Shown in pieces: positions 24,070 to 29,113 of a stretch of DNA of 64,000 bases; the first letter of the stretch is position 1, and every line of letters starts with the position of its first letter. The stretch lies in the sequence record PV295200.1; one strand, 5' to 3'. This DNA is from Escherichia phage vB_Eco_BCPEco_001. The notes below the pieces were generated by a model that saw nothing but the letters and a program-made list of their open reading frames with translations, searched no databases and was not told the origin of the DNA. A program made the position numbers and the translations under genes.

Positions 24070-24142
24070 TGGGAATTAGCCAAGTTGGTAAGGCATAGCA
24101 CTTTGACTGCTAGATGCAAAGGTTCGAGTCCTTTATTCCCAG
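24070..24142 (+). tRNA. tRNA-Gln (anticodon UUG)
   Basis: Cloverleaf read by eye: acceptor tgggaat/attccca, anticodon loop ctTTGac, T-loop ggttcgagtcc. Confidence 0.8.
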
Positions 24143-24143
24143 C

Positions 24144-24230
24144 GCGAGAATGGTCAAATTGGTAAAGACACAGCACTTAAAATGCTGCGGAATGATTTCC
24201 TTGTGGGTTCGAGTCCCACTTCTCGTACCA
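24144..24230 (+). tRNA. tRNA-Leu (anticodon UAA), long variable arm, CCA encoded
   Basis: Acceptor gcgagaa/ttctcgt, anticodon loop ctTAAaa, T-loop gggttcgagtccc, 3' acca. Confidence 0.8.
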
Positions 24231-24236
24231 AAGTTT

Positions 24237-24308
<72 letters not shown>

Positions 24309-24320
24309 AAATTTAATTTA

Positions 24321-24394
24321 CTTCGTGTAGCTCAGTTTGGTAGAGCGTCTGCTTTGGGAGCAGAATGTCGCAGGTTCAAATCCTGCCGCGGAGA
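24321..24394 (+). tRNA. tRNA-Pro (anticodon UGG)
   Basis: Anticodon stem tctgc/gcaga with loop ttTGGga, T-loop caggttcaaatcctg; acceptor stem has G-U pairs. Confidence 0.75.
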
Positions 24395-24396
24395 CT

Positions 24397-24483
24397 GGAG
24401 GCGTGGCAGAGTGGTTTAATGCACCGGTCTTGAAAACCGGCAGTCGCTCCGGCGACTCATAGGTTCAAATCCTATCGCCTCCG
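24397..24483 (+). tRNA. tRNA-Ser (anticodon UGA), long variable arm
   Basis: Acceptor ggaggcg/cgcctcc, anticodon loop ctTGAaa, variable arm cagtcgctccggcgactc, T-loop aggttcaaatcct. Confidence 0.8.
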
Positions 24484-24490
24484 TAATTTC

Positions 24491-24563
24491 GCTGATTTAG
24501 CTCAGTAGGTAGAGCAACTCACTTGTAATGAGAAGGTCGGCGGTTCGATTCCGTCAATCAGCA
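24491..24563 (+). tRNA. tRNA-Thr (anticodon UGU)
   Basis: Acceptor gctgatt/aatcagc, anticodon loop ctTGTaa, T-loop cggttcgattccg. Confidence 0.8.
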
Positions 24564-24569
24564 TATCAA

Positions 24570-24641
24570 GGCCCTGTAGCTGGAAGGTTCAAGCAAGCGA
24601 CTCATAATCGCCAGATGGTGGTTCAATTCCACCCAGGGCCA
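24570..24641 (+). tRNA. tRNA-Ile (anticodon CAU, presumably modified to read AUA)
   Basis: Acceptor ggccctg/cagggcc, anticodon loop ctCATaa, T-loop tggttcaattcca; T4 is known to carry a CAU-anticodon tRNA-Ile. Confidence 0.75.
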
Positions 24642-24682: not shown

Positions 24683-25348
24683 ATGTTCTATTACATTTAT
24701 AAAATAACAAATAAAATTAATAATAAAATCTATATAGGCGCTCATTCTACCGAAAATTTAGATGATGGATATATGGGTTCTGGTAAATTATTAAAAAGAG
24801 CCCAAGATAAGTATGGTATAGAAAATTTTTCTAAAGAAATATTAGAGTATTTTGACGATAAAACCTCTATGTTTGAGTCAGAAAAGAATATTGTGGCTGA
24901 AGAGTTTTTAAAGCGCCCTGATGTTTATAATTTGAAATTAGGTGGTGAAGGTGGTTGGGACCATTTAAACACTAAAGAATATTTGGATAAAAAGAAAGAA
25001 GCTTCCTTAAAAGGAGCTGCCGCTTTTAAAACCAGATTTGAGAACGACCCAGACCTTAAAGAAAAATATCGTAAAATGGGTTCAGAAAGGTTTAAACAGC
25101 TTTGGGATAATCCTAAGTATAGAGAGAAATTTTTAAATACTAAATCTTTCTTGGGTAAGACCCATACTCCTGAAACTATTAATAAAATGAAAGAATCTCA
25201 CGCCAGAAATAAACACCAACAAGGTGAAAAGAATTCCCAATTTGGTATGATGTGGATTCATTCATTAGATGAAAAAGTTTCTAAACGTATTAAGAAAACT
25301 GACCCAATTCCAGAAGGATGGTTTAAAGGTCGAAAAATGAAATTTTAA
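24683..25348 (+). CDS. segB: GIY-YIG homing endonuclease SegB
   Basis: 221 aa inside the tRNA cluster; N-terminal YYIYKITNKINNKIYIGAHS...DDGYMGSG module. Confidence 0.8.
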   Translation: MFYYIYKITNKINNKIYIGAHSTENLDDGYMGSGKLLKRAQDKYGIENFSKEILEYFDDKTSMFESEKNIVAEEFLKRPDVYNLKLGGEGGWDHLNTKEYLDKKKEASLKGAAAFKTRFENDPDLKEKYRKMGSERFKQLWDNPKYREKFLNTKSFLGKTHTPETINKMKESHARNKHQQGEKNSQFGMMWIHSLDEKVSKRIKKTDPIPEGWFKGRKMKF

Positions 25349-25351
25349 TTA

Positions 25352-25428
<77 letters not shown>

Positions 25429-25439
25429 AACAAGAAGCC

Positions 25440-25790
25440 GGGTCGCTACCGGCAAGTCGTCGGACTGATGTTCCCTGAGTAAGGACTGGCATTAATAAAT
25501 CTTTATGTTTTGTTAATGCCCCCTTATATCACAGCAGAAACGGCGCACCGAATTATCGATTCGAGGAAATATCTTTGCCGTAAGCCGAGTAGCGTTTTTG
25601 ACGGAACGTTCGGATATGGTCAAGATATGGCCTTTTAAAAATATTGAGTAGCGTCAACTGCTTAATAACCGGGTTCGAATCCCGGCGTTTCGTACAAACA
25701 CTTGCCTTAGCAGGTGGAACCCCGACAAGGTTGCCGCAAGGCTCAGTCCCGACCGAAAGGTTGGGGCTTTTTAGTATCTAGGCCTTTCCG
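25440..25790 (+). ncRNA. structured GC-rich non-coding region, probable stable small RNAs (T4 species 1/2, rnaC/rnaD position)
   Basis: No ORF over 60 aa; GC-rich versus flanks; tRNA-like T-arm ccgggttcgaatcccgg; ends with hairpin plus T-run (ggttggggcttttt); follows tRNA-Arg as in T4. Confidence 0.35.
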
Positions 25791-25894: not shown

Positions 25895-25936
25895 TTCACA
25901 AAACTGTTTACAAGACTGTTCTTCTATGGTACTATA
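25895..25936 (+). promoter_or_regulatory. early promoter (repeat family B, copy 1)
   Basis: TTTTCACAAAACT-GTTTAC, 18 nt, TG-g-TACTAT; about 48 nt near-identical to copies at about 40,900 and 43,044. Confidence 0.6.
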
Positions 25937-26297: not shown

Positions 26298-26633
26298 ATG
26301 AAACGTAACTTTAGTAAAGCTTTTTGTAATCGAAATTATTATCCTGAAGAGCTTTTTGAATCTAAGGAATTTAAAGAGTTTAACGAACGTTCTCAAAACA
26401 TGCCTGTACAATGGGTATTGGATTATGCTAACCGTATCTTTGAAGGCGTGCGGGATATTTGTCCTGATGATGAAGCTCCTTATTTTAAAAAGGCTTGGGA
26501 ACTTGCTAACCAAGCATATATCAATGCTTTAGAATCTTCTAAAGGCACTGACGATGATTTTACTTTATTGGCTATCAATGATGCCGTTATCGAGGCCATC
26601 GACGTCTTTATCGATGAGCTAGATGAAGAATAA
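26298..26633 (+). CDS. hypothetical acidic protein
   Basis: 111 aa ORF with GAGGAGAA RBS; no recognised motif. Confidence 0.5.
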   Translation: MKRNFSKAFCNRNYYPEELFESKEFKEFNERSQNMPVQWVLDYANRIFEGVRDICPDDEAPYFKKAWELANQAYINALESSKGTDDDFTLLAINDAVIEAIDVFIDELDEE

Positions 26634-26679
26634 GTTTACAATCTATTAAAATCTAATTGTATCAACCTAAGGAAATACT

Positions 26680-27273
26680 ATGAACACACTGAAGAAAATT
26701 GTTGAGTTTATTCGCACTAAACTTGGTTCTGCAATGGCTAAAAATCTATCTGTTGAAGAACAGTATACTGCTGCAGCAGCAAAACTGCTTGATAAAATTA
26801 AAGACCTAAAAACTGCTTCTGTTAAATCTATTAATGAAGAAAAACGTATTCGTGAACTTATTGTTGAAAAGAATAAGCAGGCCGAATCAAAAGAGCGTGA
26901 AATTCGCAAGCTTCTTTCTGAAGGTCAAGATGTAACAATGCATGCTAAACTCGGTTTACTATATCGTCGAACAGCTGAGCAGTTGACTACTAAAGCTGAT
27001 GGTTATGCTGAAATGCGAATTGAAATCGCCAAGAAAGTAGTTGAGTTAGATGATGCTCGCCAAGAACTTGCAGTTAAATTGGAATATATCCGTGAAACTC
27101 GTGCTGCGAATGCCCTTGGAATTAGTACTGCTGATGATGTAGTTGAAATTGCAGCACTGACTAAAGTTGATATTGAAGATACTCTCGCCCGAGTTGAAAC
27201 CTTTAATGGCAATATTTCTGGGGTTGAAACTACCTCTGCCGATGTTCAGGAATATATTAATTCTCTGAAATAA
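26680..27273 (+). CDS. coiled-coil protein (possibly PspA/IM30-like architecture)
   Basis: 197 aa, almost entirely heptad-like charged helices; followed by a terminator hairpin; similarity to PspA is impression only. Confidence 0.45.
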
Positions 27274-27278
27274 TGATA

Positions 27279-27300
27279 AGGGGCTTCGGCCCCTATTACT
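27279..27300 (+). terminator. terminator-like hairpin with UUCG loop
   Basis: AGGGGC-ttcg-GCCCCT followed by a weak T-rich tract. Confidence 0.45.
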
Positions 27301-27314
27301 TGGAGTAAGTAGGA

Positions 27315-27923
27315 ATGAAAATGCAAAGTGATTTCAATTCAATGTTTGAAGAGTTCCAAAGGCAGGTTGATGTTCCAGACCAATTGCTAAATGCTCTTAA
27401 ACGTATGGCAGAAGGACGTAATTATTATTGGGGTTCTTCATATGAAACTGATGAAAGTCTTTCTGGAAGATTTTCCAGAGGTAAAAAGTCTTTAATACGT
27501 CCTGGAATACTTATTAACAGTATTGAATCAATTTATTCATTGACATGCGATTTTGATGTTGAATTTACTGATTTCATTTCTCCTGAATGGACAGTTTGTT
27601 ATTTAAACGACGATTTTGATTATCTCGGTGTTTATAGTTTAAGTGACGCATGGTTTAAACGTAACTTACAAAAGTCAAATTTATTCTATATTGATACTAC
27701 AGTAAAATTTCAGGGAAAGAAATATTTCTTTACTCTTATAGTTGATTCTGAAACGAAGCATGAAAATAAACGTATTCTTAGTAAAAAGAATATCTTAACT
27801 ATTGTTGATGATCTTTTTGATAAATTCGTGGAAAATCCCAGTTTTGAAAGCGATTTATTACTAGAAAAATTTGTGAAGGAATGCAGAGAATATGTCAAAG
27901 CCATCAATGTATCTTCCAAGTAA
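27315..27923 (+). CDS. hypothetical protein; C-terminus shares FVKECR motif with the downstream membrane paralogs
   Basis: 202 aa; ends LLLEKFVKECREYVKAINVSSK. Confidence 0.5.
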   Translation: MKMQSDFNSMFEEFQRQVDVPDQLLNALKRMAEGRNYYWGSSYETDESLSGRFSRGKKSLIRPGILINSIESIYSLTCDFDVEFTDFISPEWTVCYLNDDFDYLGVYSLSDAWFKRNLQKSNLFYIDTTVKFQGKKYFFTLIVDSETKHENKRILSKKNILTIVDDLFDKFVENPSFESDLLLEKFVKECREYVKAINVSSK

Positions 27924-28284
27924 ACCGTTGAAGTATGAATTAAAGCGCCAGCTAATTTCTACTGATGTATTAATAGGTCCTGTGGTAGCTGTATCATTTG
28001 TAATTCTACTGGGGGTTGGAATAATTATAGATGTTATGACTAATATTGAATCTAATGTAATATTTGCGTCAACACTAATTCTTCCAATGATAGTTCCATT
28101 TTTATTAGTACCTGTAAATTGGATAGGATACTGGTATCAAGGAAGGCATTATCGTAAACGCGTACGTGATTGGAAAGCACAGTGTAAAAAGATTAAAAAG
28201 GAACATCAGCTTAAACTTGCTGCGTATGAATTTGATGAAATTATGAAATTTGTTAAGGAATCACGATGCAAAAGCCAAAACTAA
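27892..28284 (+). CDS. two-TM membrane protein, paralog family member 1
   Basis: 130 aa; two hydrophobic helices, basic tail ending FVKESRCKSQN. Confidence 0.5.
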   Translation: MSKPSMYLPSKPLKYELKRQLISTDVLIGPVVAVSFVILLGVGIIIDVMTNIESNVIFASTLILPMIVPFLLVPVNWIGYWYQGRHYRKRVRDWKAQCKKIKKEHQLKLAAYEFDEIMKFVKESRCKSQN

Positions 28285-28628
28285 ATAAAGTCAAATATTC
28301 GCTTCCTGAGTCATTTTTAATTTTTGCTGTGGCGTTGGCTGCAGCTCTTGCGGGTAGTCTTTTTGGATTGTTAATTGACTGTCTTATTTTAAACATTGAC
28401 GGCACAGTAAATATAATAGAAGTTTGGAGTGAACTTTGTTATACTAAAATTATTTCATTATTTTCATTCTTTGGTACCATGTTATATTTTCATTATGATA
28501 ATTTTAAAATAAATTGGCAAAGAAAAAAAGATTACAAAATACAATTAAAAGAATATAATAGCTACATGTCTTATATTGAAAATGAGTCAATGAAAGAGTT
28601 TGTGAGTGATTGTAGGAAAATTAAATGA
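28266..28628 (+). CDS. two-TM membrane protein, paralog family member 2
   Basis: 120 aa; two hydrophobic helices, tail ending EFVSDCRKIK; ATGA overlap with the next gene. Confidence 0.5.
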   Translation: MQKPKLNKVKYSLPESFLIFAVALAAALAGSLFGLLIDCLILNIDGTVNIIEVWSELCYTKIISLFSFFGTMLYFHYDNFKINWQRKKDYKIQLKEYNSYMSYIENESMKEFVSDCRKIK

Positions 28629-29113
28629 TTTTAAAAACTCGCTGGTATGATTTAGATGATGGGGATGATGGCATTTCAGTTGATAGAGTTGACTGGAATG
28701 GTTGTTCCGAAGATATGAAAAATTTGTTGATTAGGGAGTTTAGAATGGGATATCAAGCAGCTAAGCCATTTACTGTAACAGATGATAAGTTCGTATGTAT
28801 TCAAAACGGTCGCGCTAAGTTAACGAACGCTGATTGGTTCACAGATAAAATTATGATTCTGTGGTATATTATTAGTCTTCCTGTGACATCATTCGTATTT
28901 TACTTTTTTATAAAAAATCCAATGGACAGAATAGGAGATTGGATTCTTTTAACCATACTTGTTAATATTTTTACAGCAGCAATATTATCTGGGATATGGT
29001 ACACGTTCATTGAAATGCCATGGCGGCTACGCAGACAACAAAAGATTTTTGATGAAAAGAAATACGTTCAAAATTTAAATAACTTTATCACTGAATGCAG
29101 GAAATTAAAATGA
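28625..29113 (+). CDS. two-TM membrane protein, paralog family member 3
   Basis: 162 aa; two hydrophobic helices, tail ending FITECRKLK; ATGA overlap with nudE. Confidence 0.5.
   Translation: MILKTRWYDLDDGDDGISVDRVDWNGCSEDMKNLLIREFRMGYQAAKPFTVTDDKFVCIQNGRAKLTNADWFTDKIMILWYIISLPVTSFVFYFFIKNPMDRIGDWILLTILVNIFTAAILSGIWYTFIEMPWRLRRQQKIFDEKKYVQNLNNFITECRKLK

Follow-up and report, generated by a model that had tools for sequence, protein, structure and literature searches.

The gene e.6 of T4-type phages, which lies on the plus strand of Escherichia phage vB_Eco_BCPEco_001 between an ATG at position 26680 and a TAA at 27271–27273, encodes a compact and far-diverged protein of the PspA/IM30(Vipp1) family, and the relationship is one of true remote homology. 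Within the ESCRT-III superfamily, this family belongs to the bacterial branch. No virulent phage has been studied better than T4, and still more than a thousand phage genome records list e.6 as ‘hypothetical’ or under a wrong name; placing it firmly in PspA/IM30 provides a function that can be tested. Homology between the e.6 family and PspA is already in print, by computation, in two papers of 2021 and 2022. HHpred matched the e.6 homologue gp163 of Klebsiella phage Metamorpho to PspA (4WHE) at 99.9% (PMC7862958), and phrog_1203, the family that contains e.6 and Metamorpho gp163 as well as gp125 of Kuttervirus SeF3a, likewise HHpred-linked to PspA, was called a PspA homologue (PMC9409062). 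Literature searches found no experimental study of e.6, and none is known of the phage PspA-like proteins of SeF3a (gp125), Metamorpho (gp163), ME3 and Jug.

The window, that is, the whole stretch of 64,000 nucleotides that was analysed (PV295200.1), matches the T4-type Shigella phage SHFML-11 at 100% identity. The 197-residue product is 100% identical to T4 e.6 (NP_049742.1), and on this sequence identity the gene is the e.6 orthologue. In T4 infection, e.6 RNA is early, and the protein has been detected in infected cells, where it accumulates in the middle period (PMC9697503 supplement). The open reading frame is therefore a real gene. The coordinates of the gene, its predicted structural regions and its flanking elements are collected below.

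Features of the e.6 locus, with positions in the window
Feature	Position	Strand	Description
−35 element GTTTACA of the promoter 5′ of e.6 (msp3) in T4	26634..26640	+	From the promoter signals of T4 record L13089
Shine-Dalgarno AAGGA	26669..26673	+	6 nt 5′ of the ATG; read from sequence; invariant in SHFML-11, T4, T6 and e11/2
e.6 CDS	26680..27273	+	197 aa, 22.0 kDa, pI 6.1; divergent PspA/IM30-family protein; phrog_1203
alpha0, residues 3–22	26686..26745	+	Amphipathic, net positive N-terminal helix; presumed membrane-binding; low pLDDT in both models
alpha1, residues 25–80	26752..26919	+	First hairpin arm; pLDDT 76–98; collinear with PspA/Vipp1 alpha1
alpha2/alpha3, residues 86–145	26935..27114	+	Second hairpin arm; pLDDT 84–95
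Shortened alpha4 (short helices), residues 151–170	27130..27189	+	[AM]RVETF aligns with PspA ARFESF
alpha5-like C-terminal helix, residues 186–196	27235..27267	+	Ends E-Y-I-N-S-L-K, aligned with PspA E-Q-L-A-Q-L-K
GC-rich hairpin with UUCG tetraloop, between e.6 and e.5	27279..27294	+	Conserved; without a U tract

Searches with e.6 alone gave no PF04012 match in Pfam even at E ≤ 10 and no match in the PDB by phmmer, and hhalign of e.6 against the single E. coli PspA sequence gave a probability of 0.7%. The profile of close homologues (A1) showed weak Vipp1 matches (E 1.5–3; hhalign 11.9%), so that the distant members recovered from a search of 1.84 billion proteins were needed to expose the PspA link. 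The family is small, with 45 clusters among the 1.84 billion representative proteins, and its full-length members are all about 200 residues long. The curated cut-off of PF04012 PspA_IM30, 33.9 bits, is passed by two distant members, P0068 with 39.0 bits and P0066 with 35.1 bits; against a profile restricted to close e.6 homologues they match at E 4e-20 and 3e-21, respectively. Members on ViI-like contigs score above the PF04012 threshold. Against PDB sequences, the family profile found cyanobacterial/chloroplast Vipp1 (IM30; 7O3W, 6ZVR, 8QBW) first (E 9.9e-5), with residues 1–146 aligned to 1–147, collinear from residue 1. Vipp1 and PspA made up eight of the nine best matches.

Alignment of the e.6 family with PspA plus Vipp1 by hhalign gave a probability of 91.6% (E 8e-7, score 46.3) and ran from end to end, with residues 1–197 of e.6 against 1–214 of PspA, whereas the reversed and 30 column-shuffled controls scored at most 18.9, with a probability of about 1%. 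The true probability is probably above 91%, because the PspA side of the alignment was thin (Neff 1.8): the matches listed were near-identical enterobacterial PspA, the best 120 all being at least 86% identical and those listed from the contig scan all coming from Enterobacterales at 80% identity or more. Identity of e.6 to PspA/Vipp1 is only 14–17% (about 14% for E. coli PspA). In the hhalign alignment, the alpha4/alpha5 region of e.6 is shorter than that of PspA by about 21 residues, and the polymer contacts of e.6 may therefore differ.

Two AlphaFold2 models of e.6 (pLDDT 75 and 81) are about 80% helical, with helices at residues 3–22, 25–80 and 86–145 and three short helices beyond. The predicted fold is thus an alpha0 helix, a hairpin and an alpha3–5 layout, as in ESCRT-III/PspA proteins, and not a generic coiled coil. 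Foldseek against the PDB placed Vipp1 in all of the best eight positions (E 1–5e-3, probability 1.00) and as the best match of both models, followed by filaments of the archaeal ESCRT-III protein CdvB2 (E 0.02–0.1) and by PspA 7abk; the E-values are modest at about 1e-3, TM-scores lie between 0.42 and 0.54 and the rmsd is large. Fitted onto Vipp1 6zvs_A, the hairpin shows an rmsd of 2.9 Å over 121 columns. In the search of viral models, the first places went to relatives of e.6 and a single unnamed viral protein, with a Snf7 protein and a phage ‘PspA/IM30 family protein’ directly behind; the E-value for a giant-virus model of Snf7 is 1.7e-3. The ‘PspA/IM30 family protein’ of Acinetobacter phage ME3 is of a more canonical PspA/IM30 type and came up by fold similarity only, and Jug jumbo phages carry pspA-like genes according to a mention in a paper. 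Coiled coils as a class are prone to false matches.

The resemblance extends along the chain. The hydrophobic moment of alpha0 is 0.45 in e.6, compared with 0.42 in E. coli PspA (PF04012; PDB 4WHE) and 0.57 in Vipp1; the helix aligns with PspA residues 1–22, and F10, I11 and K14 are nearly invariant. The alpha1/alpha2 hairpin has its tip at the same position as in PspA, alpha4 shares ARVETF with ARFESF, and both C-termini fit E-x-[LI]-x-x-L-K. The most conserved motif, residues 88–99, adjoins the hairpin tip and aligns with the ‘LAREAL..K’ segment of PspA/Vipp1. T174 and F175 are invariant in close homologues, and Y192, S195, L196 and K197 are nearly invariant. Conservation is highest in the motif at the hairpin tip and in the C-terminal helix. 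In Vipp1/PspA polymers, hairpin-tip and C-terminal helix elements make inter-subunit contacts, which is an indirect hint that e.6 may self-assemble. The earlier note had described a charged, helical protein recalling PspA/IM30, without claiming homology, and had named the lack of a PspA-family match or a generic coiled-coil fold as what would speak against it. Charged residues (K/R/D/E) indeed make up 67 of the 197 (34%), PspA-family matches exist, the predicted layout is of the PspA type, and the homology itself now has support from the Pfam-passing relatives, from Vipp1 as the top PDB match and from the controlled hhalign comparison, with which the published HHpred results on homologues agree.

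The protein also differs from its closest known counterparts. It shares the alpha0–alpha5 layout of Vipp1 but not the C-terminal alpha6 extension that is specific to Vipp1, falls short of the full-length protein by about 60 residues and has no thylakoid context. It shares the superfamily fold of ESCRT-III proteins (CdvB/CdvB2, Snf7), with weaker similarity to CdvB2 and Snf7 in the fold searches, but its amphipathic helix at the N-terminus is PspA-like, no Snf7 (PF03357) match was listed among the Pfam families for any e.6 family member, and there is no sign of a Vps4/MIM-type partner: no AAA+ partner was seen among the six flanking genes (e.8–e.2). Whereas E. coli PspA belongs to an operon controlled by sigma54 and PspF, e.6 is a virulent-phage gene read from phage early promoters with no pspBCDE-like partners nearby, and neither Pfam nor PHROGs revealed PspB-, PspC- or PspF-like partners among e.8, e.7, e.5, e.4, e.3 and e.2. 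Association with Psp/Lia partners (pspBC, pspF, liaI) is typical of the subfamilies in Proteobacteria and Firmicutes rather than of PspA/IM30 proteins as a whole. We also considered e.5 as an obligate partner and rejected it: genes 3′ of the distant homologues lack convincing similarity to e.5, except for a C-terminal stretch in one of them (L086; E 0.003 pairwise), and the e.5 family is narrow (14 matches).

Homologues of e.6 occur in 1,106 phage records, covering T4-like genera and ViI-like phages and including phages of Aeromonas, Serratia, Klebsiella and others; the family is near-universal in T4-like phages and very uniform. Compared with T4, T6 and e11/2, the gene carries no nonsynonymous change and 13, 21 and 19 synonymous codon changes, respectively, while its neighbours carry 8–22 nonsynonymous changes in the same comparison. 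By this codon count, e.6 is strongly constrained. In the laboratory it is dispensable. CRISPRi-ART classed T4 e.6 as ‘Not Fit’, that is, non-essential, and HIDEN-SEQ recovered insertions at all 43 of its 43 sites. In one condition sheet of HIDEN-SEQ Extended Data Table 6 it has a log2FC of −0.20 (adjusted p 1.0), and it is not among the conditionally essential T4 genes reported with RexAB, RnlAB, CBASS or DarTG1/2 or in minimal medium; with the membrane-depolarising RexAB, only rIIA/rIIB were depleted. Dispensability in the laboratory, together with the absence of any amino-acid change among T4, T6, e11/2 and SHFML-11, suggests a condition-specific role.

By analogy with PspA and Vipp1, the most likely role is that of a guardian of the membrane and the proton-motive force (PMF), and we consider it probable, if well short of certain, that e.6 as a whole is a diverged PspA/IM30 protein made by the phage for this purpose. 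The protein would, by way of alpha0, attach to the inner membrane on its cytoplasmic side and polymerise through hairpin–alpha5 contacts into carpets or rods that seal a stressed or leaky membrane, so that the infected cell would keep its PMF; it might also confer resistance to membrane-targeting defences. Because T4 shuts off host transcription, induction of the sigma54-dependent psp operon is no longer open to the infected host. The T4 holin fires too early when the PMF falls, and several abortive-infection (Abi) systems kill by lowering the PMF. A phage PspA would accordingly be expected to protect lysis timing, lysis inhibition and tolerance of superinfection. A lytic phage may actively maintain the inner membrane and PMF of its host after the host stress response has been shut down, and such upkeep bears on lysis timing, on lysis inhibition and on withstanding membrane-targeting immune systems.

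More tentatively, T4-like and ViI-like phages could carry in their early programme an ESCRT-III/PspA-type membrane-repair polymer that replaces the phage-shock response they silence. The PMF it holds would then set a ceiling on the survival of infected cells and support lysis inhibition, and it would help the cell to withstand repeated superinfection and depolarising Abi effectors; we regard this broader scheme as possible rather than probable. If it were true, membrane repair would be both a viral counter-defence and a life-history trait, and T4 e.6 would offer a tractable minimal PspA of 197 residues for mechanistic work.

Other readings of e.6 were weighed against the guardian role. A dedicated anti-defence factor, neutralising Abi effectors that permeabilise or depolarise the inner membrane, seems unlikely. 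Such a role was proposed for the Kuttervirus homologue in the same family, phrog_1203 (PMC9409062); e.6 is expressed early (PMC9697503 supplement), and being dispensable in defence-poor K-12 yet constrained in nature is a pattern typical of counter-defence genes. The HIDEN-SEQ results with RexAB, CBASS, RnlAB and DarTG given above argue against it, as does the near-universal and uniform distribution of e.6, many anti-defence genes being patchy and fast-evolving, and there is no known target system. An anti-defence factor of this kind would be a special case of membrane protection, with host immunity as the selective force.

Enterobacterial PspA also uses its hairpin domain to act as an anti-activator of PspF. 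Since the PspF-binding fragment of PspA is the 4WHE hairpin and e.6 keeps alpha0 and the hairpin, e.6 might be a regulatory mimic that binds PspF, PspB/C or PspA to manipulate the Psp response. We consider this improbable. The e.6 profile matches enterobacterial PspA 4WHE at E 1.3, compared with E 1e-4 for cyanobacterial Vipp1; being no closer to enterobacterial PspA than to Vipp1, e.6 is not a recent capture from the host that would have kept PspF-binding surfaces. Homologues in phages of other hosts point the same way, and control of a sigma54 regulon would presumably be of little use under the transcription shut-off by T4.

A second improbable reading makes e.6 a remodeller that shapes membranes in the manner of ESCRT-III/Vipp1 for phage needs, such as prohead assembly sites, vesicles or invaginations, rather than for repair. 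PspA and Vipp1 are reported to remodel and fuse membranes in vitro, e.4, e.3 and e.2 encode membrane proteins, and in ViI-like contigs the gene next to the e.6 homologue encodes a protein with an N-terminal transmembrane helix. However, the conservation of e.6 across genera does not extend to its neighbours, and e.6 is dispensable for plaques whereas head assembly is essential.

It is very improbable that e.6 is a generic coiled-coil or structural protein unrelated to PspA, even though e.6 and its family have weak Pfam matches to many unrelated coiled-coil families and some records name it ‘host specificity protein’ or ‘tail completion protein’, because the matches to PspA/Vipp1 are specific, run collinearly over the full length and survive the reversed and shuffled controls, while expression in T4 is early/middle and not late, the gene is dispensable and fold searches show no similarity to tail or fibre proteins. 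We accordingly rejected these two labels, and with them ‘predicted membrane protein’, as e.6 has no transmembrane segment. An Rz-like spanin (phrog_1267) was rejected as well, with E 0.25, no matched stretch and no transmembrane-like segment in e.6.

The flanks of the gene bear on the suggestion of the earlier note that e.6 is a discrete unit followed by a terminator. The first part holds well: a promoter is annotated directly 5′ of e.6 in T4, and the gene neighbourhood varies among T4-like genera. In the phage analysed here, a 16-bp deletion between 26650 and 26651, seen in the alignment of SHFML-11, T4, T6 and e11/2, removes the matching −10 element TATTAT of this promoter. As for the terminator, a strong, conserved hairpin does follow the gene (A-GGGGC-UUCG-GCCCC-U), but no U run lies 3′ of it on the plus strand, where the sequence is TATTACTTGG, and the terminator scan scored it on the minus strand only. 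Without a U tract a canonical intrinsic terminator is less likely, and we rejected that label; a hairpin that stabilises RNA or serves its processing, or else a terminator of low strength, is the likelier reading. It is labelled ‘stem_loop’ in the old T4 record L13089 and a terminator in one other record. The 56-nt stretch 27265–27320, which includes a second small stem, folds at −14.5 kcal/mol (z −2.1), and the one aligned base that differs around the hairpin among SHFML-11, T4, T6 and e11/2 lies 3′ of it.

The ORF e.6 encodes a 22.0-kDa protein (pI 6.1; 34% charged residues) that is 100% identical to T4 e.6 (NP_049742.1), the gene named msp3 in the old T4 record L13089; no TM-like segment was found in the product. 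The 1.75 kb around it was 100% identical to Shigella phage SHFML-11 and 95–97% identical to T4, T6, RB18, and many other Tequatrovirus genomes. Since there is an ORF with a ribosome-binding site, a known T4 gene, and a charged product, the charged coiled-coil protein that an earlier note had observed here is real. The T4 block runs e.8-e.7-e.6-e.5-e.4-e.3-e.2-nudE-e, with the tRNA cluster, segB, rnaD, and rnaC upstream. The cluster in the window contained Gln, Leu, Gly, Pro, Ser, and Thr tRNAs plus a CAU-anticodon tRNA, called Met by ARAGORN and Ile in T4 records.

Positions of e.6 and the surrounding features in the window
Feature	Position	Strand	Remarks
tRNA cluster	24070-24641 and 25352-25428		T4-type
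segB	24683-25348		GIY-YIG homing endonuclease gene; between tRNA cluster and tRNA-Arg, as in T4
Terminator-like hairpin	25745-25768		Real T run; matches end of rnaC/rnaD region in T4 gene order
Sigma70-like sites	25907-25935 and 26244-26272		
Codon-change comparison regions	26680-27273 (e.6) vs 26298-26633 and 27315-28628		
Region of T4 e.6/msp3 promoter	26634-26663		Deletion between 26650 and 26651
Ribosome-binding site AAGGA	6 nt upstream of e.6 start	+	
e.6	26680-27273	+	ATG 26680, stop 27271-27273; 197 aa
Hairpin A-GGGGC-UUCG-GCCCC-U	27279-27294	+	Directly 3' of e.6 stop codon
FVKECR	27870-27887		End of e.5
FVKESR	28249-28266		End of e.4
FVSDCR	28599-28616		End of e.3
e.2	28625-29113		Intact 162-aa ORF; overlaps nudE start
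FITECR	29084-29101		End of e.2

Searches with e.6 alone gave sub-threshold coiled-coil noise only in Pfam, no phmmer match in the PDB, and phrog_1203 ('unknown function', E 8e-88) in PHROGs. A word-indexed search found 49 relatives with identities down to 48%, all of about 197 aa. When a profile of 30 of these was compared with 1.84 billion representative proteins, only 45 clusters were retrieved, and the full-length members were 195–209 aa, with a lowest identity to e.6 of about 18%, which makes this a small, tight family. HMMER did not connect it directly with PspA, a very large family. Three lines of evidence, independent of one another, joined the two. First, PF04012 (PspA_IM30) matched five of the 45 family members scanned, and two distant members, P0068 (39.0 bits) and P0066 (35.1 bits), exceeded its curated cut-off of 33.9 bits; both matched the profile of close e.6 homologues only, over their full length (E 4e-20 and 3e-21, respectively). 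Second, when the family was widened to 45 sequences and its profile was run on all PDB sequences, Synechocystis Vipp1 came out on top (E 9.9e-5; collinear, residues 1–146 vs 1–147), and eight of the first nine matches were Vipp1 or PspA. Third, profile-profile comparison of the widened family with a small alignment of Vipp1 and genuine E. coli-type PspA from the K-12 genome gave 91.6% probability (E 8e-7). Coiled-coil bias was controlled by reversing either alignment or shuffling columns 30 times: the real score was 46.3, compared with 18.4 and 18.9 for the reversed alignments (probability about 1%) and a shuffled maximum of 17.8. These lines support the likeness to PspA that the earlier note had seen in the architecture.

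The permissive alignment ran end to end, e.6 1–197 against PspA 1–214, apart from a single deletion, about 21 residues long, at alpha4/alpha5. In the predicted N-terminal amphipathic helix (alpha0), a 15-residue stretch of e.6 aligned with MGIFSRFADIVNANI; at the hairpin tip, EGQDV aligned with KERED / NGEEN; a 10-residue motif, the best conserved in e.6, aligned with LARAALIEKQ / LAREALARKK; and ARVETF and the C-terminal EYINSLK aligned with PspA ARFESF and EQLAQLK. PspA homology is already in print for the same family, with T4 e.6 named: gp163 of Klebsiella phage Metamorpho was reported as a T4 e.6 homologue with an HHpred probability of 99.9% to E. coli PspA 4WHE_A (PMC7862958), and gp125 of Kuttervirus SeF3a, in phrog_1203, was called a PspA homologue with a proposed role against abortive infection (PMC9409062). 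We conclude that e.6 very likely belongs to the PspA/IM30 family, as a divergent member whose relationship two papers had noted.

AlphaFold2 models of e.6 reached pLDDT 75 with 30 input sequences and pLDDT 81 (pTM 0.64) with 45. The predicted helices (3–22, 25–80, 86–145, 151–160, 166–170, and 186–196) correspond in the models to the alpha0 / hairpin / alpha3–alpha5 layout that PspA and Vipp1 share. In the PDB, the best eight Foldseek matches of either model were all Vipp1 (entries 7O3W, 7O3X, 8QBW, 8QBR, 8QBS, 9EOM, and 6ZVR; E 1.3e-3 to 1.1e-2, probability 1.00), followed by archaeal ESCRT-III CdvB2 filaments, with PspA 7ABK lower down. Structure prediction, which the earlier note had named as a check, thus favors the PspA/Vipp1 fold. 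Whole-chain rmsd was large, as expected from the way subunits of this family open and bend on polymerizing. For the hairpin by itself, superposition on 6ZVS_A gave 2.9 A across 121 columns. Among predicted viral structures, the best matches were e.6 relatives in T4-like phages and in Erwinia phiEa2809 and Klebsiella UPM 2146, which we take to be ViI-like phages, followed by one unnamed protein, then giant-virus Snf7 and a 'PspA/IM30 family protein' of Acinetobacter phage ME3. The predicted N-terminal helix carries a net positive charge and is amphipathic, with a hydrophobic moment of 0.45 (E. coli PspA, 0.42; Vipp1, 0.57). The hairpin and C-terminal helix are the parts of e.6 best conserved among homologues.

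By analogy with PspA and Vipp1, e.6 would bind the inner membrane through alpha0 and polymerize through the hairpin and C-terminal helix, and the polymer would stabilize damaged membrane and preserve the proton-motive force (PMF). The rationale comes from established features of T4 infection. With host transcription abolished by T4, an infected cell cannot induce its own Psp response; the T4 holin is triggered too early when PMF is lost; a lysis-inhibited cell has its envelope punctured by superinfecting phages; and depolarization is how several abortive-infection systems kill. Membership of the PspA/IM30 family combined with such membrane and PMF protection is, in our analysis, the favored reading, with moderate confidence.

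Literature searches found no experimental study of e.6. In T4, the e.6 RNA falls in the early class and the protein in the middle class (PMC9697503 supplement). CRISPRi-ART knock-down of the gene left fitness unaffected ('Not Fit', score 0.30, p 0.20; PMC11879866 supplement). Transposon insertions were recovered at 43/43 sites, so the gene was classed as non-essential, and it was not among the conditionally essential genes reported for RexAB, RnlAB, CBASS, DarTG1, DarTG2, or minimal medium (bioRxiv 10.1101/2025.11.20.689424 and supplement); one comparison sheet of that supplement gives log2FC -0.20 with adjusted p 1.0. The RexAB and CBASS screens weaken the idea of a dedicated anti-abortive-infection role, which we consider unlikely. 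Mimicry of PspF/PspBC is quite improbable, and we give equally little credence to membrane remodeling for assembly. That e.6 is an unrelated coiled coil or a virion protein is the least credible reading, given scores far above the coiled-coil controls.

Codon comparison showed that e.6 is under strong purifying selection. It differed from T4, T6, and e11/2 by 13, 21, and 19 synonymous codon changes, respectively, and by no nonsynonymous change, whereas synonymous and nonsynonymous changes versus T4 numbered 8 and 8 in e.7, 11 and 12 in e.5, 8 and 22 in e.4, and 10 and 11 in e.3. Constraint on e.6 far exceeds that on any other gene of the block, and this local contrast is sharp despite the dispensability of e.6 in the laboratory. 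The 'phage shock protein' that T4-type phages keep for themselves is thus tightly conserved. By tblastn, a homologue was present in 1,106/50,697 phage records, with hosts including Escherichia, Klebsiella, Shigella, Aeromonas, Enterobacter, Yersinia, Citrobacter, Salmonella, Serratia, and others. Among PDB sequences, the family profile was closer to Vipp1 (E 1e-4) than to E. coli PspA (E 1.3); e.6 therefore represents an old phage lineage of the PspA/IM30 family and not a recent capture from the enterobacterial host.

The earlier note had also described a discrete unit followed by a terminator. e.6 does behave as a separable gene: homologues lie in the nrdD-nrdG region in RB43, an Aeromonas Tulanevirus, and one metagenomic T4-like contig, and between gp41-type helicase and DNA ligase genes in ViI-like contigs. 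The terminator held up in part. A conserved hairpin directly follows the stop codon (over 76 bp aligned among SHFML-11, T4, T6, and e11/2, the one differing base is downstream of it), but the + strand has no U run after it, and the terminator scan scored it on the opposite strand only. Stable UUCG hairpins are common between T4 genes, and we read this as one of them, with a possible role in weak termination or RNA stability, and not as a canonical terminator. Records label it a putative stem-loop (L13089) or a terminator (e11/2). The T4 promoter annotated just upstream of e.6 in L13089 consists of GTTTACA, 17 nt, and TATTAT. In the window, a deletion (16 bp compared with T4, 10 bp compared with T6 and e11/2) removes the -10 TATTAT and retains the -35 GTTTACA; e.6 is therefore probably read from the upstream sigma70-like sites.

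Database labels for e.6 homologues vary ('host specificity protein', 'tail completion protein', 'predicted membrane protein'), and the T6 record names neighbors 'capsid scaffolding protein' (e.7), 'site-specific RNA endonuclease' (e.5), and 'DNA primase' (e.2). This analysis found no support for these labels, which look like propagated annotation errors. In RB43, 'e.6' is annotated as only 97 aa (L094 4001-4447); tblastn aligned query residues 52–197 upstream of and through it, suggesting a frameshift, a truncation, or a mis-called start.

Pfam and PHROGs gave no informative matches for e.7 and e.8. The e.5 family is narrow (14 matches), and its position next to e.6 is not conserved in distant phages. 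The overlapping genes e.4, e.3, and e.2 encode small membrane proteins with TM segments; e.5 has none. All four products carry F[VI]x[ED][CS][RK] 3–11 residues before the stop, and translation of the 64-kb window in all six frames contains just one further occurrence, five in all where 0.89 would be expected. Because the pattern was defined after seeing these sequences, the peptide is a lead only; tandem paralogy, or a docking peptide common to the four products, may underlie it. T4 records give e.2 either as a shortened gene of 309 bp or as a split e.2a/e.2b; the copy in the T4 laboratory sequence may be disrupted. The PspA-like gene of ViI-like contigs is immediately followed by a gene (L084 6690-7223, L091 6650-7210, L093 6661-7254) for a product of about 180–200 aa with an N-terminal hydrophobic, TM-like helix and a sequence unrelated to T4 e.5, which could be a recurrent pairing of a PspA-like gene with a membrane protein gene.
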